Virus record (IMG/VR): IMGVR_UViG_3300032313_001281
Span: 12,793 to 76,792 of that record
DNA length: 64,000 bases
Strand: one strand, 5' to 3'
From: a virus
Positions 48,588 to 64,000 of this stretch are shown piece by piece. The stretch's first letter is position 1. Each line of letters opens with the position of its first letter. Below the pieces are notes generated by a model that was not told the DNA's origin, did no database searches, and saw nothing but the letters and a program-made list of their open reading frames with translations. Both the position numbers and the translations under genes were made by a program.

Positions 48588-49544
48588 TTATTTAGATTCT
48601 GCAACGGGTTTGGGTATTATTTTTGCCAAAGCCTGTCCGCCACGCAGGCTATGCTGTTCACCGGGCTTGCGCAGTTCCAACCAGGTGCTAGGACCTTGGT
48701 CAGTCCAACTGAAGGCTATTTCATAGCCCAGAGTCTGGGCCAGTTCGCGCACCAGATAACCGGGGGTATAACAACAATAGTGTTGTTCTACCAACATGAC
48801 TGCCTTGGCACGATCACAATCATTGAATGTCATGACCAACATGCCACCGGGTCTCAGTTTTTGATATATTTCTGTGAGATACTGTCGTAGTACTTCAAAA
48901 GGTCTGAAGTTAAAAAAGTTGTAGGCAAATACCAGTCCAAACTGACTTTTAGGCAACTGTCCTAATATGGCCTCGCCCGATCGTTCCTGGATGGTATAGG
49001 GTCGCAGGCGTTGCTGATACTGTTCGTTGAACTGAGTCATGGCCGGTTGCAGGAGATCATGGCTTTCATCCACCAAGTACAACGGATCTGAAGCCAACAG
49101 GTCATTGATAAATGTTTCTCGTCCGGGACGTATGATCATGGCAGCATGGTGCCAACTATTGTAGCGTGTCAGGCGAGTGCGATAGAACTGTTCAGTGTTG
49201 GCAGAAATTTCAGGACGGCGATCCAAGATGTATTCAGCGGTTTCATGCAACATCTCTTGCTCGTAGAGCCTGTAGCTTTCAGCAAACCAGGGCTTTTCGG
49301 TGACGGTAATCAGCTCACGCAAGGTCTGTTTTAATGCGTCCAGATCAGACTGATATTGTCTCAAGGAGTCGGCTACCTCAGTTTGCCTCCGGGCCAGCAC
49401 AGCGCTGAACTGTTCCAATTGTATAGCAGAGGTTGATACCACATGCGTGATCTTGGACAAATTTTGATCAGTTTGCTGTGCTGTGTTGACCGCAGACATT
49501 ACATCCAGCTGGTTCATGTAGTTTACGAGTTCACTGAGCTTCAT
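48588..49544 (-). CDS. coiled-coil + class I SAM-dependent methyltransferase-like protein
   Basis: QFGLVFAYN.FN...L.EI...LRPGG. Confidence 0.65.
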   Translation of the reverse strand: MKLSELVNYMNQLDVMSAVNTAQQTDQNLSKITHVVSTSAIQLEQFSAVLARRQTEVADSLRQYQSDLDALKQTLRELITVTEKPWFAESYRLYEQEMLHETAEYILDRRPEISANTEQFYRTRLTRYNSWHHAAMIIRPGRETFINDLLASDPLYLVDESHDLLQPAMTQFNEQYQQRLRPYTIQERSGEAILGQLPKSQFGLVFAYNFFNFRPFEVLRQYLTEIYQKLRPGGMLVMTFNDCDRAKAVMLVEQHYCCYTPGYLVRELAQTLGYEIAFSWTDQGPSTWLELRKPGEQHSLRGGQALAKIIPKPVAESK

Positions 49545-49545
49545 A

Positions 49546-52203
49546 TCACCACTCAAACAAAGTTTGGAAAGTGTTTTCTGTATTGGTGGCCGACACCAGG
49601 TCCCAGTCCAACACACCTAGTAGATTATCCAATTTCTGATCCACTACTGTGGCTTCCATTTCGCTGTCGTCAAATGGTAGTTCTTTGAACCAAGTTGGCA
49701 AATGAATCTCATCGGTGGGATACCCTATGCTGGTCCAGCCCAGGGGATTGGATTTCAACTTGCACACAATGGTCTTCATGCCATCAACAATCTGCATTGA
49801 ATACTTGTCCGAGTTCATTCTGCGTAAGTTATTCCAATTGATAGCCGCACGCACATGGCCTGGCATGTTGGCTTTGCCCAGGCGTTCCTCTTCCTTGGCA
49901 TACTTGGTCAAGTTATTCACACGCTTGGGACTGCCCTTCTCCCAACCTGGACGTTCTTTGAACTTGTATTTGAACTCGCGAATCTTTTCAATGATCTGCT
50001 CACGACCGGTGCCAACCAGAACCTCGTCGAGAATTTCGCTTAAAAACTCCTGGATGACCTTAGGAGTGTCACTGCGTTTGAGATCAAGCCCCATGGCTTT
50101 TACTTTGCCAGGACTACCGTGGGTATCCACACGCTTATTTTCTTTGTCGTAATACATAACAGCATAACGTTTTTTAGTAATAAACAAGCCTTTGCTTGCA
50201 ACAATTTCGCGTCCACCTCGTATTACATCGCCCATTTCACGCGGCACATGGAATGCCTGTTCCATAAATCCAGGAAAGCTATCGTTGACTTGATCGGCAA
50301 TTGAATTGTACAGTTGTACAGCAATCTCACGACTCCAGGTCATGTTGCCGGCTTCAATTTCTTTTTGTAACACAGGATAAGCAGTAAAGTAACAGGAGTC
50401 TGTATCACCATAGATGATACTTTCGCCTACGTGGTCATACTTGCCAGTGATACATTCGTTTACATACGCATCCATATGTTTAGCAATTGCACGTCCAGTA
50501 AGAGTTGTAGACTGGCCAATACGCTTGTCAAAGAATCTGCAACCAGGATTAAGAATAGCACCATACAGACTGTTGAGGTTAATCTTTTTAACAAGTTGAC
50601 GCTTGTCCCAATACTCCTCATCTTCTGCATTTTTACATTCTTTTAGTTTGGCCTGCATTTCTTTACGCTCGGCATACCAGCGTTTTAGCAAGCCAGGAAT
50701 AACTGCTTCTTTCTCATAGGTAAAGATAGTGCCATTGGCTGTGATCATCCAGGGACGGTTGCTATCAAAAATTATTTTCCATACATCAGCGGCACTGTGT
50801 ACACTTTCTTCGCCATCTTTCCAATCAATGGTAATTTCTGTGCCGACTTCGGTATTCATAACAGCCGTGTATTCTAAACTACCAAACAGACCCTCCCATG
50901 CGCCAGCAAAACTCGAGCCACTGCGCATTTTATCACCGATATATCGTTCGGTCATTACAGGACGCAACTGCCCAATGATGGTTTCTGGTCCCATGTTGAG
51001 CGCACGAATAGCACTGGGATACAAACTGTTGATGTCTATGCTTCCTACATACTCGTGGATGCCTTTCTTTGGAAATGCAACATAAGCCCCAGCGGCCTGC
51101 GTGTCTTCATCACTGTAACGTTCCTTGCGATTGGGCACAACCATGCCACGCTCGTGTGCTTCGTTGATAATGGCCTGTTCTGTCACAGCTACAGCACCCA
51201 TTGTGGTTTGTAGTAGCACAGTATTTTCATGTGCCAGTGTATTGGCAAGATCCAAGAACTTTAATTTCTTGTCCAGCTTGCTGAGAATCATTGTGTCTTG
51301 ACGATTGTATTCAATGAACTTTTTGAAGTTTTGATTGTACAGTTGATCCAGTGTGCCTTCAAACACTGTCTTGGTTTCTTGCAGTTCATATTCAGCAATA
51401 GCATCCAGGCTATAACTGTGACGTTCTTCATATGTGTACTTGCGATACAGTTGCATATAGTCCATATGCACACGACCAATCAAGTCATAGGTTTCATTCT
51501 CTGCACCAAAGCGTTCAAACACACGCTTCTTGGGATATTGATTCCATAAACAAAATCTACGTGTGTCATCTTTGCTGAGGACACGGGTAACACGATTTAC
51601 TGTGTAGGGTATATCATATCCCTCACTGTTCCAACCTGAAAGTGCATCTGCGTCTTCAATAAGATCCAGGAAGGTTTTTAACATTTCTTCTTCTTGATCA
51701 AACACAATGCAGTTTTCAAACTCGCTGGCAATCTCATCCGCGGTAGTACGACTCATGTGCCGGGGAGGAACCACCAAGGTGACCATTTGCTCTAGCCATT
51801 GCAGATAAACTGAAATAGCAGTGATAGCATTGAATGGATCTGTTGTTGGGCTAAATCCACGTTCGGGATCAAAGTCCACCTCAATGTCAAAGAACGCTAC
51901 GTTTAATTTTGGACCGTCCTGGCCTTTGTAGTTTTCTTCCAGGCAACGAAAGATTGGATTGATATCCGATTCATACAGTTGTTTGCCTGACTGTATGCGG
52001 ATCTCTTTGCGGAACTCTTTGTTATTTCTTGTGCTGAACCTTGACACGGGTGTGCCAAACAGGCTTTGGAATTTACCACGAGGATCATCATAGTAGAATG
52101 TGTAGTTGGGTGCGTACTCCTGATAGCATCTTTTGCCATCTCGGCGTTCAACCACATGTATGCGATCGTGTTCACGATCAAATAGTGCGTCAATATAACT
52201 CAA
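49546..52203 (-). CDS. family B DNA polymerase (T4 gp43-like), TTG start
   Basis: Exo DIEVD, DINSLYPS, KINLNSLYG, YGDTDS, KKRY. Confidence 0.96.
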   Translation of the reverse strand: MSYIDALFDREHDRIHVVERRDGKRCYQEYAPNYTFYYDDPRGKFQSLFGTPVSRFSTRNNKEFRKEIRIQSGKQLYESDINPIFRCLEENYKGQDGPKLNVAFFDIEVDFDPERGFSPTTDPFNAITAISVYLQWLEQMVTLVVPPRHMSRTTADEIASEFENCIVFDQEEEMLKTFLDLIEDADALSGWNSEGYDIPYTVNRVTRVLSKDDTRRFCLWNQYPKKRVFERFGAENETYDLIGRVHMDYMQLYRKYTYEERHSYSLDAIAEYELQETKTVFEGTLDQLYNQNFKKFIEYNRQDTMILSKLDKKLKFLDLANTLAHENTVLLQTTMGAVAVTEQAIINEAHERGMVVPNRKERYSDEDTQAAGAYVAFPKKGIHEYVGSIDINSLYPSAIRALNMGPETIIGQLRPVMTERYIGDKMRSGSSFAGAWEGLFGSLEYTAVMNTEVGTEITIDWKDGEESVHSAADVWKIIFDSNRPWMITANGTIFTYEKEAVIPGLLKRWYAERKEMQAKLKECKNAEDEEYWDKRQLVKKINLNSLYGAILNPGCRFFDKRIGQSTTLTGRAIAKHMDAYVNECITGKYDHVGESIIYGDTDSCYFTAYPVLQKEIEAGNMTWSREIAVQLYNSIADQVNDSFPGFMEQAFHVPREMGDVIRGGREIVASKGLFITKKRYAVMYYDKENKRVDTHGSPGKVKAMGLDLKRSDTPKVIQEFLSEILDEVLVGTGREQIIEKIREFKYKFKERPGWEKGSPKRVNNLTKYAKEEERLGKANMPGHVRAAINWNNLRRMNSDKYSMQIVDGMKTIVCKLKSNPLGWTSIGYPTDEIHLPTWFKELPFDDSEMEATVVDQKLDNLLGVLDWDLVSATNTENTFQTLFEW

Positions 52204-53979: not shown

Positions 53980-54333
53980 TTACTTACCGTCTACGTGCAG
54001 TTGGCTACCTGTATTGAAACTGGGACTGAACGGACTCTGTGCAACTTTTCCGCCTCGGCTTTGGCTCCAGGCATAGCCAGCACGATGACCTGAACAGTCC
54101 TTGGTGCATTGGCTGCCTAGGAACTGTAATTCATCAAGATGTTGTTTGGTCCACTTGTCGGGGATAGTTCCATGTTTCCCCACAAACAAATCATGTAATT
54201 TTTTTGGTGTGATTTTGTATTTGCGTGCTATGCTCTGCATCATGTGATCTATGGCATCATATCCTGTGGGTTTTTTTAAAACTTTTTCCAGGTCTTCAAC
54301 ACTGCTTTCTATAACAAAATCAGCGGCTCTCAT
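53980..54333 (-). CDS. putative internal virion protein
   Basis: MRAADFVIE N-terminus; CTKDCSGH.AGY.W module. Confidence 0.65.
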   Translation of the reverse strand: MRAADFVIESSVEDLEKVLKKPTGYDAIDHMMQSIARKYKITPKKLHDLFVGKHGTIPDKWTKQHLDELQFLGSQCTKDCSGHRAGYAWSQSRGGKVAQSPFSPSFNTGSQLHVDGK

Positions 54334-54440
54334 CTTAAGCCCACTAGTTGTTTGAGTTTGGCCAAGGCCTCATGGAAACTTTCTGCCACAATAGTTACCC
54401 ATTCTTGAGTCTCAGGATGCTTGAATTGATAGTTTTTCAT
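54330..54440 (-). CDS. 36-aa hypothetical protein (not in ORF track)
   Basis: MKNYQFKHPETQEW...LVGLR, ATGA overlaps on both sides. Confidence 0.55.
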   Translation of the reverse strand: MKNYQFKHPETQEWVTIVAESFHEALAKLKQLVGLR

Positions 54441-55621
54441 TTTTTTCCTTTGTTGCCCCAGTTGGCGGCACCTTTTTTACGACACTGAACAAGGGCACCC
54501 GATGCATAAGCCGAAGGCCACACCTTGTAACGACTTTTTACTTTGCTGTAGCAGGCGTCCTGTTTTTCATCAAGGTCATCTTCTTTTACTCGAGTTGCCA
54601 CGTTTTTTGCCGCACCGCGACGCTCAGGATCAGGATCTTCTCTACGCTTTTTGGCCGCGGCACTGGCACGACCCTTCTTGCCCAGGGCCTGTGCTTTGGC
54701 CTGTGGCAAACACTTGGGTTTACCTTCTGAGCTAGATCCTCGAGCACAGTCGCCGCGGATTTTGCCGTCGGGACCAAATCTTACCCACTTTTCTCGGAAC
54801 CATTTTTTCAAATCTTCGGCTAGTTCTTTTTCTTTGGCAACTAGAGCAGTGTCAACAGCCTGTGGTTCGGGAGCACTGAGTTTGCCCATGACAATCATTT
54901 GCTCAATGCGTTTGGCCAACATCTTGGCTTGCTCGCCTTCATCATCCTTGAGTGCCTGACGAAATTGATCCAGCACGGGTTTGACCTGTTCATAGGTTTT
55001 ACGATTCATAGTCACGCCTTTGCGTTCCAGGGCATCTATGATTTGACTTCCTTGATATTTTTTTAGTTTGTTGAGTATGGTATAGTAGGTTCCTACTGCG
55101 AATGCGCCGCCGGCTATGATAACTAGACCCAGTAACTCTCTGGCCGTGTTGTCCAAGAATGGATCCACGGCTTCTTCCAGAGATTTGGTAGCAGGCTTGA
55201 TACGATCTGTAGGCAGGGCATGTGTCCGCCAATATTCTTCAGCACCAGCAGGTGTGGGTGCCAGCTTTTCTTGACGTCGGGCCCGGGCCACTTGTTTGCC
55301 TTGCTTCAGCAGGGCCAACTGGCGATCTATTTCTGCACGTTGTGCCAGTAACCTAGGTAGCTCACTGGGCTGGTAATGTATACCATACATTTTACTGGCC
55401 TGCTTGATGGCCTGTTCATAGTCCAGACTGATGCCTTCATGGCTGGCATCTCGCATGGCCATGGCAGCTGCTTTGAACAGCAGATCCCGGCCAGTGATTT
55501 CTGGACCCGTTTTTACTTCCGCCACAGGCACACAGTTGGGCACCTGTCGGTCACCTTTTTTCTTCATGCCCTGTTGTTGATACCCGGTCCAGCAACGTTC
55601 GTATATTTCTTGGAATCTCAT
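54437..55621 (-). CDS. modular putative internal virion polyprotein
   Basis: Start MRFQEIYE; Cys-containing modules separated by hydrophobic-x-E sites. Confidence 0.7.
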   Translation of the reverse strand: MRFQEIYERCWTGYQQQGMKKKGDRQVPNCVPVAEVKTGPEITGRDLLFKAAAMAMRDASHEGISLDYEQAIKQASKMYGIHYQPSELPRLLAQRAEIDRQLALLKQGKQVARARRQEKLAPTPAGAEEYWRTHALPTDRIKPATKSLEEAVDPFLDNTARELLGLVIIAGGAFAVGTYYTILNKLKKYQGSQIIDALERKGVTMNRKTYEQVKPVLDQFRQALKDDEGEQAKMLAKRIEQMIVMGKLSAPEPQAVDTALVAKEKELAEDLKKWFREKWVRFGPDGKIRGDCARGSSSEGKPKCLPQAKAQALGKKGRASAAAKKRREDPDPERRGAAKNVATRVKEDDLDEKQDACYSKVKSRYKVWPSAYASGALVQCRKKGAANWGNKGKK

Positions 55622-58600
55622 GCGTCCACACCCAGGATCTGTTTGACTTGTTGCACCCAACCCGACACATCACTGGAGCCAATCTCGTCGGTGTCACCCA
55701 CATTGTAGGCAACTTCTTCAATGGCCTGCACTACCTTGTCAAGACCAAACTCAACAATGAGATCAGTGTGTGCTACCAACATTCTACGCATGATGGCCAT
55801 TTCCACAGCTTCACCGCCGTCACTGTCTTCACGCACCATGCGTTGTTGCATGGTAATCCAACCCTCGGCTTCGGCCTGGCTTTCTAATTTTCGTATTTCT
55901 GCTTTAATGATCTGTTTGTTGGCTGAATTTGAATCAGCACTTATCATGCGCAACAGATAATCTCTGCGATCTAAGAAATCATTCTTGGTTACTATTTCCT
56001 TAGCTTCGTTGAGATCAGACTCAATCTTGGTTATGAGTCGGTCAGCGGCCAGACGGAAGTTCTTCATGCTTGGTGTTCCTATCCGTGCCTGCTCAATGGC
56101 TGCTTCTTCACTGTCACCACCACGTGTGATTGACACCGAGCGAGTTTTAGGATTAAAGAAAACTGTGTAGCCTTGTATCACACTCTTGAGTGGTATAGTG
56201 GTTCCGGGCATGCCAAACTCTTCTTTTATTCTACCTTCAAAGTTGTCTGTGGGCCTTTGTACAATTGATCCAGATTGACCTGCTGACTTTACTGTCGCTT
56301 GTGCTCCAGTGGCTGGCTGTTGTGCTCCGGTGGCGTTTTTCTTGCTAAGAGCATTGATAACACTGTCTGCGCCGTGTCCTGGCAGACCAGCCTTGTTTTG
56401 AAGAATCTTAAAGACCGCTTGTTTATTACTGGCATTGCCCAGAGCTGATGCCAAATCATTTTGATTTTGAATTTTGCCAGACTGAATCTGTTGTATGATT
56501 GTTGTGGGATTGGCTAGGTTAGGGCCGCCGGATGCTGATTGTGCTTGAGCAGCACCGGCTCCGCCTAAGGCCATTGCTCCAGCAAGTGCAGCACCAGCTA
56601 GAGTTGACTTCAATCCTTCAGTCATGTCCGAATGCAGTTGAAAATCATAGTCCACACGGTCCACAGCCTGTCCACGTTTGTTGTAGTAATCGGCCACATC
56701 AACTTCGTCGCTGGTCACACGTATGCGTTTTTTAGTGCCATCTTTGAAATACACTGTGTGTACATAATACTCGCCTGGTTTTAAGCTTTCTGACATGCTT
56801 TGCGATAATTTTTGTTTGAGTGATTGAATCTTTTGCTGATACATTTTGCATTTTGCATCATCACCGGCACGATTTGCAGCCAGAGCCAGTGCTTCCAACT
56901 TTGACATTTTCTTTTTCAGCTCATCAGTGCCTTCCGTCATGGAGTCATCTTCAAAGGGCAAAAACCAGAACCAGTTTTGGAATCCACCCGGGTTGGTGTC
57001 ATATTCCATGTGGGCACGATTCCTGGCTGTAGCCATCATCCTCTTGAACTCGCCTTCGGCACCATGCAGTTCAGCATAGTTTTCCAACTCGTCATACAGT
57101 TGGCCAGCAAGGAAACTGTCCCTGTGGCGTTCGATCTTGGGAGCCAAGCGGCGATATATTTCAGCCATGCCTGCTCGAACATTTTCTACTGTTTCATTTA
57201 CTCCGGGCTTGTCCGACTTGGCCACAATGGCCGCGGCCTCTCTGCGGCTGTCAGCATCCATACGCGGATCACTGAGTATGGCCTTGGCTGTGTCTAGTCT
57301 GTGTTTCACAGTGGCCGGATCTTGAGGATACTCTGGCACTCGGGCACGATCTAGTTCCACAGCTTCCATGTACTGTCTCATGAACTGATAGTAAGCACGC
57401 CCAATAGGCAAGCGATGACGCTTGATTATCATGCCAATCTGCCCCAGCAGGCGAGATTTGCTGTTTGCACCCAAAGCAGAATCTCTGCTAATGGCCTGTA
57501 TGGCTGCTCGCACTGCATCTACATCATTTTCAGCATCAATGGCCAGATAACGATGTATGAGTTCTTGTGGCTGACCTTCTCGCATGAGATCTTGCCAGTG
57601 TTGCTTAGGACCAATGCCACCCCCGTGTTCTTTTATCTTGGACTCGGCTGCTTTTCTCTCACCATCGTTGTCTGCTTTTCTCTCACCATCGTTGTCTGCT
57701 TTTCTTCCATCAAGTGCTGCTTTTCTCATACTTGCTGGAGGTGGTTTAATGGTATCAAGTGGTCGCTCACTGGAAAAACCTTTAGTGAGTTGTCGTGCCA
57801 TAGATCCCATGGCTGATTTGGTCGGAATTGGTTTGGATTCAGGTTCTGCCACTTGTTTAACAGGTTCTGCTGATACTGGGGCACCCACATCAATTATGCC
57901 GCCCTGGGCTACGTCAGCAGAGACTTGTGGCACAGTTGTTTTAGTTTTAGTGGCGGCCTTTTTGGTGCCAGTCATTTGACCAATGGCCTGTTGCAGTCGA
58001 TCATTGGTGGCCTGTACCTGTGCCAGGCGTTGTTCTAGGCTGTTGTTTTCTTGATCAAGTCCGTCAATTTCGCCACCCTGTTGTTTGTCCAGATCAACCA
58101 GTTGTTTAAGCAGGGCATCTTGTTTTTCATTGGCACCACGTATGGCTGCCAGTTGTTGTCGACTGCGTTCTGCACTGTCTATTTCTGCACTAGCCACAGC
58201 TTCAATGTCGCTACGCACAGCAGGATATCGCGCACGGAGTTTTTGAAGTTCCCTAGCAACCTTGACGTCACCGGCTTCTAGATCGTCGCTGTTAGACTTT
58301 TTTTTTTCTTGCAACGGCAGTTCGCCCTGTGTGGGTATGCCAGGTAAGGATGGTTGTACTTGTTGTGTGGTCCAACCCAGTTGTTTGAGGATTTTTTTAG
58401 TTTCGTCACCACTGGGTAGCACACGATAGATGAAATAATTTTTGGCTTGGTCGCTTTCCAGGCCATCATAATAGTCACTGATAAGATCCAGTCCCTTTTG
58501 ATCCAGTTTGAAATTTTCTTCGGGTCGAATGAATTCCAAACTCACAATGGGAATGTTGCCCATGTTGGCTTTGACCAGGCGCTGGAAATTGGCCACACCC

Positions 58601-59052
58601 AGAGCACGAGGATTTACTGTTTGTTGTTCTTCGTCCATGGGCTCGGGTTCGCCTTTGATAAAGGCCCGGAGACCAGCACCCACATTGGCCAAGGGACCTT
58701 TCTTGGATCGTTGTGCCAGTTGTGCCATTTTTTGTCGAGGATCTTGAACATCACCGACACCTTTTGGCTCAGGTTTGACATAGGCAAATGGATCCTGCTT
58801 GCTGGGAACTTGTTGTTCTTGAGTTTGAGTTTTACGATCTAAAATAATGTCCAGGCGTTTTTGAACCAGTTCTTCGTATTCTTTTTCCAGCTTGGAAACT
58901 TGCGCAGGATCAAGTCGTCTACTGCGTAGTTGTGTGCGTATGTCCATGGCTCTTTGACTCAAGGGCTCAATGAGATGAGCAATGGCATCATCTACAGCAC
59001 CTTCGTGCAATTTTTTCTCATATCGTGAGTTAAACAAATCTATACTTAACAT
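55618..59052 (-). CDS. 1144-aa modular putative internal virion polyprotein
   Basis: Coiled coils and many hydrophobic-x-E junctions. Confidence 0.75.
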   Translation of the reverse strand: MLSIDLFNSRYEKKLHEGAVDDAIAHLIEPLSQRAMDIRTQLRSRRLDPAQVSKLEKEYEELVQKRLDIILDRKTQTQEQQVPSKQDPFAYVKPEPKGVGDVQDPRQKMAQLAQRSKKGPLANVGAGLRAFIKGEPEPMDEEQQTVNPRALGVANFQRLVKANMGNIPIVSLEFIRPEENFKLDQKGLDLISDYYDGLESDQAKNYFIYRVLPSGDETKKILKQLGWTTQQVQPSLPGIPTQGELPLQEKKKSNSDDLEAGDVKVARELQKLRARYPAVRSDIEAVASAEIDSAERSRQQLAAIRGANEKQDALLKQLVDLDKQQGGEIDGLDQENNSLEQRLAQVQATNDRLQQAIGQMTGTKKAATKTKTTVPQVSADVAQGGIIDVGAPVSAEPVKQVAEPESKPIPTKSAMGSMARQLTKGFSSERPLDTIKPPPASMRKAALDGRKADNDGERKADNDGERKAAESKIKEHGGGIGPKQHWQDLMREGQPQELIHRYLAIDAENDVDAVRAAIQAISRDSALGANSKSRLLGQIGMIIKRHRLPIGRAYYQFMRQYMEAVELDRARVPEYPQDPATVKHRLDTAKAILSDPRMDADSRREAAAIVAKSDKPGVNETVENVRAGMAEIYRRLAPKIERHRDSFLAGQLYDELENYAELHGAEGEFKRMMATARNRAHMEYDTNPGGFQNWFWFLPFEDDSMTEGTDELKKKMSKLEALALAANRAGDDAKCKMYQQKIQSLKQKLSQSMSESLKPGEYYVHTVYFKDGTKKRIRVTSDEVDVADYYNKRGQAVDRVDYDFQLHSDMTEGLKSTLAGAALAGAMALGGAGAAQAQSASGGPNLANPTTIIQQIQSGKIQNQNDLASALGNASNKQAVFKILQNKAGLPGHGADSVINALSKKNATGAQQPATGAQATVKSAGQSGSIVQRPTDNFEGRIKEEFGMPGTTIPLKSVIQGYTVFFNPKTRSVSITRGGDSEEAAIEQARIGTPSMKNFRLAADRLITKIESDLNEAKEIVTKNDFLDRRDYLLRMISADSNSANKQIIKAEIRKLESQAEAEGWITMQQRMVREDSDGGEAVEMAIMRRMLVAHTDLIVEFGLDKVVQAIEEVAYNVGDTDEIGSSDVSGWVQQVKQILGVDA
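57648..57705. repeat. 24-bp in-frame tandem repeat (about 2.4 copies)
   Basis: ctgcttttctctcaccatcgttgt x2 plus partial; encodes RKADNDGE repeats. Confidence 0.9.
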
Positions 59053-59774
59053 TATTCTTCTTCCAGGTAATCTTGTGATTCATCTTGCTTCTTTTTTCTA
59101 GCAACAAACATTTCAATGGCCATTTCGGCCTGGTCCAAGTTTCGAAAACGTGAAGGCATGCAACGGCCTCCACTGCGAATTTCAAAGCCATCGCGTTCAT
59201 TGCCATGCATTTCGTAAACACCGTATTCATTCATGACAGTCTTGACTGCGGCAGACTCCGTCTGAGGCTCTGGAGCATCATAGGGACTTTCTCCACGCTG
59301 GTAAGCAAGATCGCTAGGCAAATCTTGTTGTTCATCATCGTCGGGGTCTGTAGCCGCTGGTCGGTCCTTGGCTTTTAGACCGCGATCCTTCTTGTCGCGG
59401 CTTTTGAGATCTGTATCTTCTTGTTTCTTTTCTTTGATGTCAGAATCTTTGATCTGTTCTTCGGCCTGTTTGATAAAGTCTTTGAATGATCGTTGCACTT
59501 TGGCCAACACATCTTCGGCCATGTCTGCTTCCAGCATGGCCGCTTCATGTTCTACACTTTCGTCACTGCCGACCATGTAGCCCGACATGGGATTTTTGGC
59601 ATTAGGATCGCCGCCAAGTATTTTTTGTGTTTTAGGTTTGAACAAGGCTGGCATCTGTGGCACTGACCGTTGTTGTGGATTGAGACCTTTCTTTACACCA
59701 GTGGGAGTGATGCGGCCTTCAAGGATGGCCAGTTTTTCCACGATGGTGTAGATGTCGTTATGGTCTTGTGCCAC
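59052..59774 (-). CDS. acidic hypothetical protein (putative virion-associated)
   Basis: 240 aa, ends DYLEEE. Confidence 0.65.
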   Translation of the reverse strand: MAQDHNDIYTIVEKLAILEGRITPTGVKKGLNPQQRSVPQMPALFKPKTQKILGGDPNAKNPMSGYMVGSDESVEHEAAMLEADMAEDVLAKVQRSFKDFIKQAEEQIKDSDIKEKKQEDTDLKSRDKKDRGLKAKDRPAATDPDDDEQQDLPSDLAYQRGESPYDAPEPQTESAAVKTVMNEYGVYEMHGNERDGFEIRSGGRCMPSRFRNLDQAEMAIEMFVARKKKQDESQDYLEEE

Positions 59775-59777
59775 GGT

Positions 59778-60218
59778 TCATGCCCTTGTGTCTTTCAAAT
59801 AACTGCGTAGTTGCCATGCATATTTGCCGTGTGAGCTTTGGCGTTCTGCGGCAAAATTTGCAACATCTTCACGACCGTCGGCAGCGGCAGCATCAAATAC
59901 TTGCTTGCTCATGTCAATCATGGTCTGTGTATCTGCGAGTAATTCTTCTAACATTAATCGGGCACGAGGGACCTTGGTCTGTCCCTGTATCATGCTAAGT
60001 TCCTGATAGCGTTCAAAGCTGCCAGGTGCATATTCTTCTGTGGTACGGATGTATTCAGCAATGGGATCTACGGCATCAAATGCATCTTCGTAGATCTTTG
60101 AAAGAAATTTGTGTAACTCACCAAAATCTGGACCTTCCACATTCCAATGGAACATGTGTGCTTTTAGGTAATAAGCAAATGTTGATGCCAAATAGGTTTT
60201 TAATAAATCAGCGAGCAC
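59778..60218 (-). CDS. dps: Dps/ferritin-like DNA-protection protein
   Basis: HWNVEGPDF..LH, D.IAE, H.K..W.L. Confidence 0.9.
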   Translation of the reverse strand: MLADLLKTYLASTFAYYLKAHMFHWNVEGPDFGELHKFLSKIYEDAFDAVDPIAEYIRTTEEYAPGSFERYQELSMIQGQTKVPRARLMLEELLADTQTMIDMSKQVFDAAAADGREDVANFAAERQSSHGKYAWQLRSYLKDTRA

Positions 60219-60411
60219 GTGACTTCTTTCCTTTTTTCATATAGGCGGGAGTATTCGGATACGGATCCGCACTGTTAGAGTATTTACCAGAAAAGAACGA
60301 TCCGCTGTTTCTTGTTATCATCCCGCCCAGGGGCATGGCAACAGGTGCTATGCTACCTGCAGTGGTGCTGGCAACGCTGGCGTTTTCTGCTATAAACTCA
60401 CTGGCTCTCAT
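60208..60411 (-). CDS. small putative internal virion protein
   Basis: MRASEFIAE N-terminus. Confidence 0.7.
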   Translation of the reverse strand: MRASEFIAENASVASTTAGSIAPVAMPLGGMITRNSGSFFSGKYSNSADPYPNTPAYMKKGKKSRAR

Positions 60412-60694
60412 CTTGTATCCTTAACAACACATTGTTTTTTACGCTTCCTGGACCCAGATCCACACGCACATTGCTGACCGTGAGTTGCGCCAAGCAAGGC
60501 TGTACCAGTTCCCAACGCAACCGGTATTTGCCAGGTTCTGCTTCGATCTGCAACATTTCTTCCAGATAGCTATCAGTCCAGCGCCAGGTACGTTCAGCAA
60601 ACAGTTCATCGTTGACATACACGCGATAGGAGGGCATGAGTCCTTCCCAATCACAGTCCACATCAGCCAACACACGCACAAACTTTTTGCTCAT
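60398..60694 (-). CDS. hypothetical protein
   Basis: YRVYVNDELFAERTW. Confidence 0.7.
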   Translation of the reverse strand: MSKKFVRVLADVDCDWEGLMPSYRVYVNDELFAERTWRWTDSYLEEMLQIEAEPGKYRLRWELVQPCLAQLTVSNVRVDLGPGSVKNNVLLRIQDESQ

Positions 60695-60712
60695 GCTGTA
60701 TTTAGCGATGTA

Positions 60713-60901
60713 TTATTTTACTTCTTTTACACTGCCTATGTGCCAGTCCTCAACTCCATACTGACTTCGCATGAGTCTACGGGCATCGTTCATGTTGGGG
60801 GCCGTGACTGTCACTTCTATGTAGCCGGTGTAGTTGGGTTGTTGGATACGCACAGGTGCGGTCCACAGTTTGTATTTGGGATATATTTCTTGAGCTTTCA
60901 T
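60713..60901 (-). CDS. small hypothetical protein
   Basis: MKAQEIY start, ATGA overlap. Confidence 0.65.
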   Translation of the reverse strand: MKAQEIYPKYKLWTAPVRIQQPNYTGYIEVTVTAPNMNDARRLMRSQYGVEDWHIGSVKEVK

Positions 60902-62085
60902 TGGCCTGTCCATCGAGCCACCATTGTGGTGTCTGGTCTAGTATATATGCCCGTTCCGGGTCTGCTGCTTCGCATGCTGCGGCGGCCAGCACGCACAGGA
61001 AATGTGTAGTGCGTGTAGTTTTCATCCTGTAACACAATGTTGTCCCCAGGTCTGGGTCGATAGTCTGATGTGCGATCCATAGCAGACCCTACTACTTCTA
61101 CTCCTGGTATGCTGTTCAACATGAGCCACATTTTTTGACCGTAGCCGGTTTGTAGTTGGCCAGCTTCTACTGGTAGTCTAAGTATGCTGAGTGCTATGCC
61201 GTAAAGAGCCTTGGCAATGCCACGGCCACGGTGTTGAGGATCCACTGCTAGATTTTCTACACTCCATGTTTTCATTGGACCACGGGTGTCTGCTAGATCC
61301 AGTTCGCCCACTATCTTATCCTGGTCAAATATCATGATCTCTAGAAATTCTGTATCTTTTTGGTTGATGCCATAGGTCAAGCCGGATCCGCCAGGCAGTT
61401 CTTTGCGGGCTACGTCTGGCACACGTTCCGTGTCAATGGTGCCGGCTGTGCCGTAATCACCTTGTGGTATGCGGGCTATTTCTGTTACAGCACTCTCATT
61501 GGTTCTGTGATATTCTGACGCTTGGCCATTGGGATCCACGTGCCAGGCATAAAATTTGCTGTAGGGATAATCCTGCTTCAAACTCAAGAAAGCATTCAAG
61601 TTGGGCACTGAATCATCATACATGATCAGCTTGTCAAAATGCTCTTTGCCCAACAGGTGTTTAAGAATGATTTTTTTCTTTTCTTCTGTGGCTGCTTTGA
61701 TGGCCATGTTGCCGGCACGATACACATGTACCTGATCCATGTCTATGCCAAAGCGTCGGAATGTGTCCAGGAACACATCACGATCATTGAAGTCCGATCT
61801 AGCAGTAAGCATGATCACTCTGTTGCCAGTGGCTATGTCTTGTTTTAACTGTCGGATCATGCCAGGTATGGGCTTGGCCTTGGTAAAAAACTCTCTAGCA
61901 TCCTTGAATGCTCCAAAGTCAAATGTTTCACCGGGGCCCAGTTTATAGTGCGTAAAGTCGTGGCTGTTCAATTGTTTAATGATTTTGCCATCCTGAACCA
62001 CATTGACTCTAGTATCGGTGTTGACCAAAGTGTCGTCAATGTCGAATATGACCAGTTTTCCGGATCCTAGTTCTTGTGCTCTCAT
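60898..62085 (-). CDS. HAD-superfamily phosphatase domain + GNAT-like domain fusion
   Basis: FDIDDTL, LTAR, YDD..NL; then V.PQHRGRGIAKALY acetyl-CoA motif after a VTE linker. Confidence 0.75.
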   Translation of the reverse strand: MRAQELGSGKLVIFDIDDTLVNTDTRVNVVQDGKIIKQLNSHDFTHYKLGPGETFDFGAFKDAREFFTKAKPIPGMIRQLKQDIATGNRVIMLTARSDFNDRDVFLDTFRRFGIDMDQVHVYRAGNMAIKAATEEKKKIILKHLLGKEHFDKLIMYDDSVPNLNAFLSLKQDYPYSKFYAWHVDPNGQASEYHRTNESAVTEIARIPQGDYGTAGTIDTERVPDVARKELPGGSGLTYGINQKDTEFLEIMIFDQDKIVGELDLADTRGPMKTWSVENLAVDPQHRGRGIAKALYGIALSILRLPVEAGQLQTGYGQKMWLMLNSIPGVEVVGSAMDRTSDYRPRPGDNIVLQDENYTHYTFPVRAGRRSMRSSRPGTGIYTRPDTTMVARWTGQ

Positions 62086-62792
62086 TTTTGATCCAATTCC
62101 TGAAACAGTTTTACCAGATGTTTGGCTTGGGTGCCAAATACCAATTTCATTTGTGATCCTGTGTAAAGATAAGCTGCTGCTTCTTCGTCTACATGATTCA
62201 CATAGTCCAGTTTCTTGATCAGCGTTTGCGTTATAGCTTTGAATGCAGGATCATTTTTGTGTGCTTGGATCAAGGCATCGGCTTGGCTCTTGAATGTGCT
62301 GTCTAAATAATACCTAGCATGGAACATTTCGTGTCTCAAGGTGGCTGAGTCCGTGCCTCCTACACCGATTACACAATATTTTTTTAGTCCTTTGGAGGCC
62401 CGGTTGACTGCATCCACCATGACCTGTTCAGCACTGGTCAAGCCACCTGCAGAACGTTTCCAGGCCCGGAATGCATGATCTGGAATGTTGAATCCGTCCC
62501 AGAATTTGAAATAGTCCACATTGCCTGCACGATCCATCCAGTTGTCCAAGAAATCTACCAAACTAACCGAACGATCGCTACCGCCATAGTGTTTGCCATC
62601 GTAGTATTCGGTCACACGGAAGAAACTGCGGGCCACATCGGGCACAGTTTTGTACTTTAATAATATGCAACCATCAAAGGGCTCGCTGACTTGGACGTCA
62701 CTGTTTTTGAAGTCCAGATCTTGTTTGTGGTCAAAATAGTTGTCCAGGGTCTTTTTAGTCCAACGCTCGATTAGGAATTCTGTGGCTCTCAT
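62082..62792 (-). CDS. putative zincin metallopeptidase-like protein
   Basis: MRATEFLIE start; HEMFH...DE. Confidence 0.55.
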   Translation of the reverse strand: MRATEFLIERWTKKTLDNYFDHKQDLDFKNSDVQVSEPFDGCILLKYKTVPDVARSFFRVTEYYDGKHYGGSDRSVSLVDFLDNWMDRAGNVDYFKFWDGFNIPDHAFRAWKRSAGGLTSAEQVMVDAVNRASKGLKKYCVIGVGGTDSATLRHEMFHARYYLDSTFKSQADALIQAHKNDPAFKAITQTLIKKLDYVNHVDEEAAAYLYTGSQMKLVFGTQAKHLVKLFQELDQK

Positions 62793-64000
62793 TTTTTTAC
62801 AGATTCAAAATTTTTGTAATTTGATGAACGACGTATCTCACTGGGTTGTGTGCCAGGAAGAGTAGACTTAGCCTGTGGTGCTTGTGGTTGTTGTTGAATG
62901 CTAAGTGCAGCCGCATCTTCTGCTTTTGCCTTGAGCATATTTAGAGTTCTGCGATCCATAATACGACCATCTTCTTTGGCACGGCGAACTAACTCATTAT
63001 AATAGCGTTGAGTCAAATTGGCTTTAGTTTGAATTTGCTGTATTTCAGCTGGAGTTAACTTCTTATTAAAAACGTCAGTGTCGTCTTGGGCAGTGCCGCC
63101 ACCCAGGGCCATTCCAGCACCCAACACACCGGCTGCAACATTTTGCTTCCAACCTTCATCCATTTCAGATTCATTCTTTTTGCCCGACTTCATGTTGGCA
63201 CACCAATGATACATCCGGGCTTTTTCCCCACTTGCACGTTTGGCACGGGCTCGTAGATCAGTCACACTTCCGTTGCAACTGGCTCCACTACGTTTTACAC
63301 GTCCTGGGCGACTTTTACCTTTGACTCGACCGTCGGCAAAGTTTTCTTTAACAGTGTCTAAAAATGCTACTTCGTCTGGAATACCAAGTTTTTTAATGCT
63401 CCAAAGTATTTGATTGTATTTGCCATCATATAACATAGTTCCTGGGCCTTGACGATTTAATCCCAATTCAGCAGCCTTATACATACTGGGTTTGAGATGT
63501 TCACCAGCTTCAGCAGGCCAACCACCCTTGGCAACATTGTATAGTGTGACTAAACTAAATCCCTCAGCATCGGGTTCCCAGCCATTGGGACCATGCGGAT
63601 CTACTACAAATATAGCACCACGTTTGATGAGTTCAGGAACATTTAATGGGCGCCTTGGCAAATTATAAGTTGCTGGATTGGCATTATATTTGCCTTCCGA
63701 CATACCTTGTTGATCCTTGATCCCAACATAAGCTCGGATTGTAGGAATGCCCAACTCTTTCGCCGCTACAGCTCTATGGTATCCATCTAATATATAACCG
63801 TCGCCCATCACAATAGGAGGCGCTTTGGAAAAATCCATCTGCTTATAACGTTCTACCTTGGCTGGATCCAATCCAGCCAACTCTGTTTTAAGTGTGTTGG
63901 TTGGAATATTTTTCAACGCAAACTTGCCAAAAGTGTTTATGTGATCAAGATAATCCTGATGTAGATTTGTATCGTGATGCTGTCTTAGATACGCAATCAT
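62789..64000 (-). CDS. modular protein with ParB/Srx-like domain (probably begins beyond the window)
   Basis: PPIV....ILDGYHR..AA..LG; later modules after MSE, VKE, MDE. Confidence 0.7.
   Translation of the reverse strand: MIAYLRQHHDTNLHQDYLDHINTFGKFALKNIPTNTLKTELAGLDPAKVERYKQMDFSKAPPIVMGDGYILDGYHRAVAAKELGIPTIRAYVGIKDQQGMSEGKYNANPATYNLPRRPLNVPELIKRGAIFVVDPHGPNGWEPDAEGFSLVTLYNVAKGGWPAEAGEHLKPSMYKAAELGLNRQGPGTMLYDGKYNQILWSIKKLGIPDEVAFLDTVKENFADGRVKGKSRPGRVKRSGASCNGSVTDLRARAKRASGEKARMYHWCANMKSGKKNESEMDEGWKQNVAAGVLGAGMALGGGTAQDDTDVFNKKLTPAEIQQIQTKANLTQRYYNELVRRAKEDGRIMDRRTLNMLKAKAEDAAALSIQQQPQAPQAKSTLPGTQPSEIRRSSNYKNFESVKK

Follow-up and report, generated by a model that had tools for sequence, protein, structure and literature searches.

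Background and subject of the study

The internal proteins IPII and IPIII of bacteriophage T4 are basic proteins. Together with IPI they bear a capsid targeting sequence (CTS) (Mullaney and Black 1996, reviewed in PMC9026906, PMC3012670 and PMC5694885), in which residues 4 and 7 are the main determinants of targeting, and residues 8 and 10 those of processing; with Asp at position 10, cutting stops and targeting is unaffected (PMC9026906). The CTS and its diversity among the internal proteins in T-even phages have been established (PMC3012670, PMC9026906), and the giant-phage papers that name it are about phiKZ-like phages with long propeptides (PMC5694885). For short T4-type tags on enzyme cargo in jumbo phages of the T4 superfamily or in cyanophages, no paper was found in a search that had many subscription journals outside its reach. 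Here we describe a gene cluster at the end of a 64,000-nucleotide stretch of viral DNA, the window (bases 12793-76792 of the 76,792-bp IMG/VR virus record IMGVR_UViG_3300032313_001281; CheckV completeness 22%), in which six genes start with a peptide resembling these sequences. An earlier note on this DNA had proposed that the cluster is an injected-cargo system.

A common N-terminal tag on unrelated proteins

All six of the tag-like N-termini listed in the earlier note are present in the sequence, on minus-strand genes between 53980 and 62792 that start with M-[RK]-x-x-[ED]-[FIL]. Four of them carry a full tag, which ends in a hydrophobic residue, any residue and Glu (MRAADFVIE, the 8-mer MRFQEIYE, MRASEFIAE and MRATEFLIE); in the other two, MKAQEIYPK of the 62-amino-acid (62-aa) protein and MRAQELGSG of the 395-aa protein, only the first six residues are found. 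The nine-residue tags MRASEFIAE, MRAADFVIE and MRATEFLIE have exactly the layout of the T4 proteins Inh (MIDKDYIAE), gp22 (MLKEQLIAE) and gp21 (MNEPQLLIE); other T4 N-termini are MKTYQEFIAE in IPII and IPIII, MAKINELLRE in gp24 and MELITE in Alt (all from NC_000866). The general form M-x-x-x-(x)-[ED]-[FYL]-[ILV]-x-E is satisfied by the 117-, 394- (as an 8-mer), 67- and 236-aa proteins, or four of the six. The likeness to T4 capsid targeting that the earlier note had claimed holds for the layout, but a cleavable Glu is missing from two of the six.

A scan for the motif, suggested in the earlier note as a check, was run in six frames over the whole 76.8-kb contig. The motif is rare and concentrated at the gene starts of the cluster: M[RK]xx[ED][FILVY] gives 11 matches, six of which are those starts. 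It stands at the start of 6 of 11 cluster genes versus 1 of the 88 other genes of the contig (Fisher p = 3e-6). The seventh gene-start match, MKLSELV at 49544, was rejected and is not counted as a tag. This N-terminus (MKLSELVNY; minus strand, 318 aa, methyltransferase-like) lies directly after the gene for the family-B DNA polymerase (PolB) and outside the cluster, and belongs to a single orthologous family that has the same start in all relatives and no Glu at position 9. (Another candidate, MRLNEIQLG, heads a weak GIY-YIG match and was set aside; it may be a coincidence.)

The probable starts of the tagged genes are ATG AGA or ATG AAA, and four of the six overlap the upstream stop as ATGA. 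Because of these overlaps, the start of the 394-aa gene is placed at 55621, where the ATG forms ATGA with the upstream stop, rather than at the upstream TTG (55660) of the open reading frame list, and that of the 62-aa gene at 60901; an alternative in-frame ATG for the latter, at 60913, falls within the previous gene.

Judged by its genes and relatives, the contig is from an uncultured freshwater jumbo phage of the T4 superfamily with a genome of roughly 340 kb. Its PolB, at 49546-52203, is of the T4 type and is closest in the phage collection to those of Phosso (50%) and Atu_ph07 (46%), followed by Rak2-like phages, every phage match being below 60%; no close DNA relative was found among 50,697 phage records. 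IMG/VR holds many contigs from the same clade, including four large ones: G001 (337,119 bp; PolB 96% identical; direct terminal repeats, rated complete), G002 (317 kb; 94%), G003 (262 kb; 81%) and G005 (209 kb; 80%).

Over five related genomes, 42 out of 1453 genes start with the motif, as against 34 occurrences after 7490 internal Met residues (odds ratio 6.5, p = 6e-15). In all, 159 tagged sequences were collected from the relatives' genomes, 80 PolB loci and L002-L005, and they fall into 30 sequence components. The earlier view that a common tag sits on diverse cargo is borne out: by our count at least 15 unrelated cargo families bear it, and the cargo is swapped between relatives. In the syntenic locus ahead of PolB in G001, G002 and G003, consecutive genes have MRAQEF[ILV]xE-like starts and different cargo. 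The tagged proteins include single and double GNATs, HAD alone, GNAT alone, a dCMP-deaminase-like domain, a protein with three helix-turn-helix domains, a GP88 domain, DUF6321 and DUF5872 mini-domains and the HExxH protein. At the locus of the window's 117-aa gene, relatives carry a tagged deaminase joined to the same C-terminal CTKDCSGH module (MRAADFEIT..., MRISDFRIE...), so that the tag and the last module are kept and the middle is different. The two domains fused in the 395-aa protein, HAD and GNAT, come as separate genes with tags in L046 and in L023/L026 (MRAHEIQPQKLVVFDIDD...; MRFFEIARIPQGDYG...). The gene for the 236-aa HExxH protein is missing from G001, and the only homologue in a cultured phage, XacN1 ORF432, has no tag; full-length homologues (57-93% identical) are nearly all tagged, mostly with MRAxEFLIERW in which position 4 is free.

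Is the peptide itself what has been conserved? In 30 distinct full tags, the synonymous codons at Ala3, Glu5, Phe6, the aliphatic position 7 and Glu9 occur in genome proportions, which argues that tag positions 3-9 are under selection at the protein level. Within the family of the 67-aa protein (n = 19), M1 and E5 never vary, F or I occupies position 6, and most members have Glu at 8, 9 or 11; the Gly/Ser/Ala linker that follows the tag varies in length and sequence and leads into a conserved GSIAPVAMPLGG core. The family of the 62-aa protein (n = 12) keeps M-[KR]-A-x-[ED]-[IFL]. More generally, the first half of the tag is found in all families, and the [ILV]-x-E half in some, being missing from the 62-aa, HAD and deaminase families. 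This pattern fits the division between targeting and processing known from T4 genetics.

Modules, joints and a homologue annotated as virion protein

Several of the proteins are built from small modules. Seven module types were found by short motifs in all the sequence gathered, and the residues preceding them were read. In all seven types, and in every true context, a hydrophobic-x-Glu lies within eight residues before the conserved module core, its Glu being either the end of an N-terminal tag or inside a chain. Given a background of 0.135 per position, seven of seven corresponds to about 8e-7, a rough figure, as the contexts are not independent. The joints read FISE|NLKKWF, LAE|DLKKWF and MEE|DLKKWF for the KWF module, VIE|SSVEDL and IGE|GAVEDL for the VEDLEK module, and FVSE|KWS, LDE|KWS, ILE|ACW, LDE|KCW and LDE|KQDACY for others. 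A free GNAT gene starts MRFFE|IARIPQGDYG, and the corresponding joint within the window's 395-aa fusion is AVTE|IARIPQGDYG. Among orthologues of the 394-aa protein, insertions and deletions start and stop at hydrophobic-x-Glu joints.

T4-like cyanophages also have the modules of the 394-aa and 117-aa proteins, united in one protein encoded between terS and terL (S-SCSM1 ORF29, S-RIM8 gp114 and S-SCSM2R_117). Three modules of S-SCSM1 ORF29 match the 394-aa protein (E 1e-17, 1.4e-8 and 4.4e-4). The GenBank product of ORF29 is 'virion protein', and the supplement of the S-SCSM1 paper has it as hypothetical; according to that paper, mass spectrometry of the virion identified 45 proteins, 13 of them of unknown function. 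(T4-GC969, the cyanophage 'hot-spot' virion protein of Sullivan et al. 2010, was considered as the module protein and rejected; it is a different, huge protein.) The gene after the module protein starts MKTFKQFMSE in S-SCSM1 and MKSYNEFISE in S-RIM8, which is almost the CTS of T4. This protein of about 107 aa (S-RIM8, L006:9500-9826; S-SCSM1, L160:6216-6536) is annotated as hypothetical and is present in at least 137 records of T4-like cyanophages.

Head genes of the relatives

A gp21-type (Peptidase_S77) protease is encoded in G001, G002 and G005 (Pfam E 1.6e-26 to 2e-25), between the portal and core genes on one side and the scaffold-position and capsid genes on the other. In G001, where the protease matches at E 1.6e-26 in Pfam and at E 4.5e-56 to the head maturation protease in PHROG, the order of head genes is that of T4: portal, a 73-aa protein, a 286-aa protein, the S77 protease, a 366-aa gene in the scaffold position and a gp23-type capsid protein. 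From these relatives we infer that the phage of the window would have an S77 protease of its own. The 73-aa and 286-aa proteins start MILKEIYE and MTSKFEQLIE, respectively. The N-terminus of the G001 capsid protein holds LLE-7, LLE-19 and ILE-34, the last of which is nine residues ahead of the point aligned to residue 78 of T4 gp23; the T4 cut (E65) is 13 ahead. As candidate cleavage sites, these agree with a T4-like [LI]-x-E specificity. A second tagged island lies in G001 between terS and terL, with the N-termini MKNFQEYLAE, MKSLKDYITE, MRAREFLAE and MRAREFITE.

The genes of the cluster

The features of the cluster are collected in Table 1. Genes of the window are on the minus strand nearly throughout.

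Table 1. Genes and a promoter-like site in the cluster, by position in the window (aa, amino acids; pI, isoelectric point)
Feature	Position	Strand	Tag or N-terminus	Remarks
117-aa basic protein, pI 9.1	53980..54333	-	full tag, MRAADFVIE	VEDLEK module, then CTKDCSGH module
36-aa coupled open reading frame	54330..54440	-	MKNYQFKHPE, no clear tag	ATGA overlap at both ends
394-aa basic protein, pI 9.7	54437..55621	-	tag, MRFQEIYE	module chain
1144-aa protein	55618..59052	-	MLSIDLF, tag-like without basic residue at position 2	
240-aa acidic protein	59052..59774	-	untagged	no family match
Dps/ferritin-like protein	59778..60218	-	MLADLLKTY, untagged	Pfam PF00210, E 3e-20
67-aa basic protein, pI 10.2	60208..60411	-	full tag, MRASEFIAE	
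98-aa acidic protein	60398..60694	-	untagged	
TAAATAC, T4-late-promoter-like	60698..60704	-		4 nt before 98-aa gene
62-aa basic protein, pI 9.4	60713..60901	-	half tag, MKAQEIY	no Glu at position 8/9
395-aa HAD phosphatase-GNAT fusion	60898..62085	-	half tag, MRAQELG	
236-aa HExxH protein	62082..62792	-	full tag, MRATEFLIE	
403-aa C-terminal part of giant multi-enzyme protein	62789..64000	-		operon's first gene; cut by contig end

The small tagged proteins are all basic (pI 9.1-10.2). After its tag, the 394-aa chain consists of a CWxGY module, an insert with a hydrophobic helix, a KWFxEKW module and a DUF5872 module. The 1144-aa protein, whose G001 orthologue is 59% identical, contains a Gly/Ala-rich hydrophobic helix and 18 hydrophobic-x-Glu sites. 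Helices of this Gly/Ala-rich kind (LLGLVIIAGGAFAVGTYYTIL; LAGAALAGAMALGGAGAA; AAGVLGAGMALGGG) are seen in the 394-aa, 1144-aa and 403-aa products, which are soluble and charged elsewhere; they are possibly segments with which ejected proteins insert into membranes. The 117-aa gene has its start codon inside a small hairpin (GGCTT...AGCC, 54341-54325, minus strand), which may be due to chance.

The labels that the earlier note had given to two of the proteins stand. In the 395-aa protein, the GNAT domain is above the Pfam cut-off, and the HAD assignment rests on borderline HAD-type matches together with a DxDxT motif (FDIDDTL). In the 236-aa protein, the HExxH residues H154, E155 and H158 are invariant in 33 homologues, and on this main basis the protein is called zincin-like; it is possibly a small metallopeptidase of the zincin type. 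It has no sequence match in Pfam, PHROG or the PDB. Its AlphaFold model has a mean predicted local distance difference test (pLDDT) score of 69.5, with low confidence over residues 1-25 and the tag outside the fold, and gives no Foldseek match at E 0.001 or better. The best VIA-align score is Z 5.4, on a helical piece of 67 residues; the longest alignments, to PPEP-2/3 and LF-like zincins, score Z 4.2-4.3 and stay under what the tool treats as meaningful. As for Dps, which the earlier note had placed in the same block, the gene is there, but its product is untagged and nothing ties it to the head.

The 403-aa fragment weakly matches the end of a 1851-aa protein of G001 (40% identity over 58 residues), which is encoded at 140115-145670 by the first gene of its operon, the same position as that of the fragment. 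The G001 protein has NTP_transf_2 and Amidoligase_2 domains and starts MNIHEL, with GTAAATAC 5 nt upstream. By eye, a ParB-like 'LDGYHR' motif can be seen in the fragment; Pfam gives no match.

How might the cluster be expressed? The most enriched intergenic 7-mer in G001 is NTAAATA (26-fold), which resembles a T4 late promoter cut short and is found 4-30 nt before many genes, including those for portal, core, terS and the 1851-aa protein. (With many of the G001 copies, the distance to the ATG is so short that transcripts would have next to no leader.) The T4 late promoter TATAAATA is not enriched, nor is TAAATAY over the window as a whole, and no convincing sigma-70-type promoter or terminator was found inside the cluster. 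The only strong promoter, a near-consensus one of the sigma-70 type (TTGACT-16 nt-TATAAT), lies past it, at 52593-52566 on the minus strand, directly before an 87-aa gene and PolB; PolB may be transcribed early from a promoter of its own, apart from the cluster.

What is the tag for?

The most likely mechanism, and one that we regard as probable, is T4-type capsid targeting of the tagged proteins with optional trimming by a protease. The cluster would then encode head-internal cargo proteins of a jumbo phage of the T4 superfamily. As the CTS does in T4, the peptide M-[RK]-x-x-[DE]-[FIL] would serve to dock a freshly synthesized protein on the scaffolding core during prohead assembly, and where the tag ends in [ILV]-x-E, a gp21-family prohead protease would cut after that Glu. 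The same protease would cut the hydrophobic-x-Glu joints ahead of internal modules in the long chains, freeing small basic Cys-containing modules, the HAD phosphatase, the GNAT and the zincin-like protein inside the capsid, where they would remain with the DNA and exit with it at infection. Capsid targeting is favoured because of the T4-like layout of the tag, its portability, the selection on it at the protein level, the joints, the head machinery of the relatives, the island between terS and terL and the annotation of ORF29, and also because the small tagged proteins are basic and the tag of the 236-aa protein is flexible in the model. That the cargo acts in anti-defence or host takeover, as the earlier note had supposed, is a guess.

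A more far-reaching version is tentative, and we would sooner doubt it than rely on it. Here the cluster would be a plug-in cargo system, in which a single leader brings a whole chain into the prohead, the head protease serves as the maturase of an injected arsenal and modules are exchanged at the joints. The cargo of such a system would comprise GNATs, the HAD phosphatase, a nucleotidyltransferase, an amidoligase, the deaminase, the zincin-like protein and Cys-rich basic modules, and the same set of modules would be common to marine T4-like cyanophages and freshwater jumbo phages.

Several observations weigh against capsid targeting. In the tags of the 62-aa and HAD-GNAT proteins and in the whole deaminase family, Glu is missing from positions 8 and 9, so that cleavage cannot be a general rule and is not claimable for all six proteins. 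The aromatic residue at position 4 of the T4 sequence has no counterpart in the nine-residue tags, in which position 3 is mostly Ala (the ten-residue tags of G001, such as MKNFQEYLAE, do have Phe at CTS position 4). S-SCSM1 ORF29, although annotated as a virion protein, has no such tag at its annotated start. The cluster adjoins replication genes, not head genes, and a gp21-type (Peptidase_S77) protease, which the earlier note had proposed to locate, was not found on this 22%-complete contig, but is present in the relatives G001, G002 and G005. The conserved sequence of each module could simply include the hydrophobic-x-Glu that is read as a joint. Finally, the codon for Arg2 is AGA in 27 of 29 distinct tags, versus 21% of Arg codons genome-wide, and this bias, together with the four ATGA overlaps among the six window genes, suggests that the 'MR' is partly a nucleotide, start-region or stop-overlap feature, perhaps connected with translational coupling.

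Taken further, this last point would make the shared start mainly a feature of translation initiation or coupling, and the peptide would have no role in sorting. An upstream ribosome-binding site is not obvious in the window genes, and the codons that follow the start are A-rich, as might suit such an explanation. However, it accounts for AGA at codon 2 and nothing more: at positions 3-9 the synonymous codons vary in genome proportions (GAA/GAG, TTT/TTC, GCA/GCC/GCT), amino-acid replacements are conservative (D for E; I or L for F), the untagged genes of the operon are coupled just as tightly, and the tag persists across the 57-93% divergence of the 236-aa family. We consider it quite unlikely. 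An origin of the common start as a remnant of duplication or recombination at a short shared 5' sequence, without function now, would explain why cargo is swapped behind a kept start (as where the window has MRAADFVIE with VEDLEK and L026 has MRAADFEIT with a deaminase) and why the tags share ATGAGAGC at the DNA level. It is nevertheless highly improbable, with only 8-10 nt of shared DNA, a peptide under purifying selection next to a linker that is free in length and sequence, and tags in two separate genomic islands on unrelated folds.

The tag might instead be a handle for some other partner, such as a chaperone or a modifying enzyme, or else for a timed degradation system or an assembly other than the capsid. 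The M[RK]xx[DE]F core is kept even where no cleavable Glu follows, the cluster is distant from the head genes, and several of its GNATs could in principle act on N-termini, although this is only an idea. However, no gene that could encode such a partner is conserved alongside the cluster: the radical-SAM genes of the contig, at 13.5-27.5 kb, are more than 40 kb away from it, and the window lacks the radical-SAM gene that comes after the cluster in G001. The likeness to T4 propeptides, the terS-terL island and the virion-annotated homologue point to the head rather than to another partner, which makes this alternative unlikely.

Significance and comparison with known systems

If capsid targeting is the correct explanation, the injected protein set of a clade of uncultured giant phages could be read from sequence, as the genes that start MRxxEF. 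That set would be large, with a fast turnover, and rich in acetyltransferases and other enzymes, which, like T4 Alt, could affect the host during the first seconds of infection. The T4 head-loading signal would be old and widespread in the T4 superfamily and not a speciality of the T-even phages; the nine-residue variant would be a possible addition to the existing T4 protein-packaging system, and the hydrophobic-x-Glu joints would give a testable rule for the way in which cargo modules are put together and exchanged by phages.

Among other giant phages, the phiKZ-like group (with the proteases gp245 of SPN3US and gp175 of phiKZ) has many head-internal proteins that are cut after Glu and ejected (PMC5694885). 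Their three-residue cleavage motif and multiple cuts per protein (PMC5694885) resemble the joints proposed here. Their propeptides, on the other hand, are mostly longer than 100 residues, with an S/A/G-x-E motif and an S80 protease (PMC5694885), features of the phiKZ-like inner body that were not found in this clade, where the leaders are 8-10 residues long, a hydrophobic residue occupies that place in the motif and the relatives' protease is S77. The tags of the cluster also differ from the Ser-rich FVSNSSS-type tag of 16-18 residues that occurs beside a radical SAM/SPASM enzyme.

The closest parallels remain those in T4. IPI, IPII and IPIII likewise combine a short M-basic-x-x-(x)-acidic-aromatic-[ILV]-x-E peptide with unrelated, often basic proteins, their genes lie in variable loci, and a protease of the gp21 family, which in T4 cuts after Glu in [LI]-x-E, is probably common to both. 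The tags described here differ in having nine or eight residues instead of ten, Arg in place of Lys and no counterpart of Tyr4, and their cargo consists of multi-domain enzymes and long module chains, known from sequence alone. For the tagged GNATs, the closest precedent is Alt, a packaged and injected enzyme, and gp22, gp67 and gp68 are cut into multiple pieces, as proposed here for the module chains; the mature parts of Alt, Inh, gp22, gp21, gp24, gp67 and gp68 are not homologous to these proteins, and T4 has no chains of unrelated enzymes. The module protein of the cyanophages has homologous CWxGY, KWF, DUF5872, VEDLEK and DUF6321 modules, each after a hydrophobic-x-Glu, but there the modules are joined in one protein within the structural gene block, which lacks an MR-type tag at its annotated start, whereas in the clade of the window several genes beside PolB, each with its own tag, share the modules among them.

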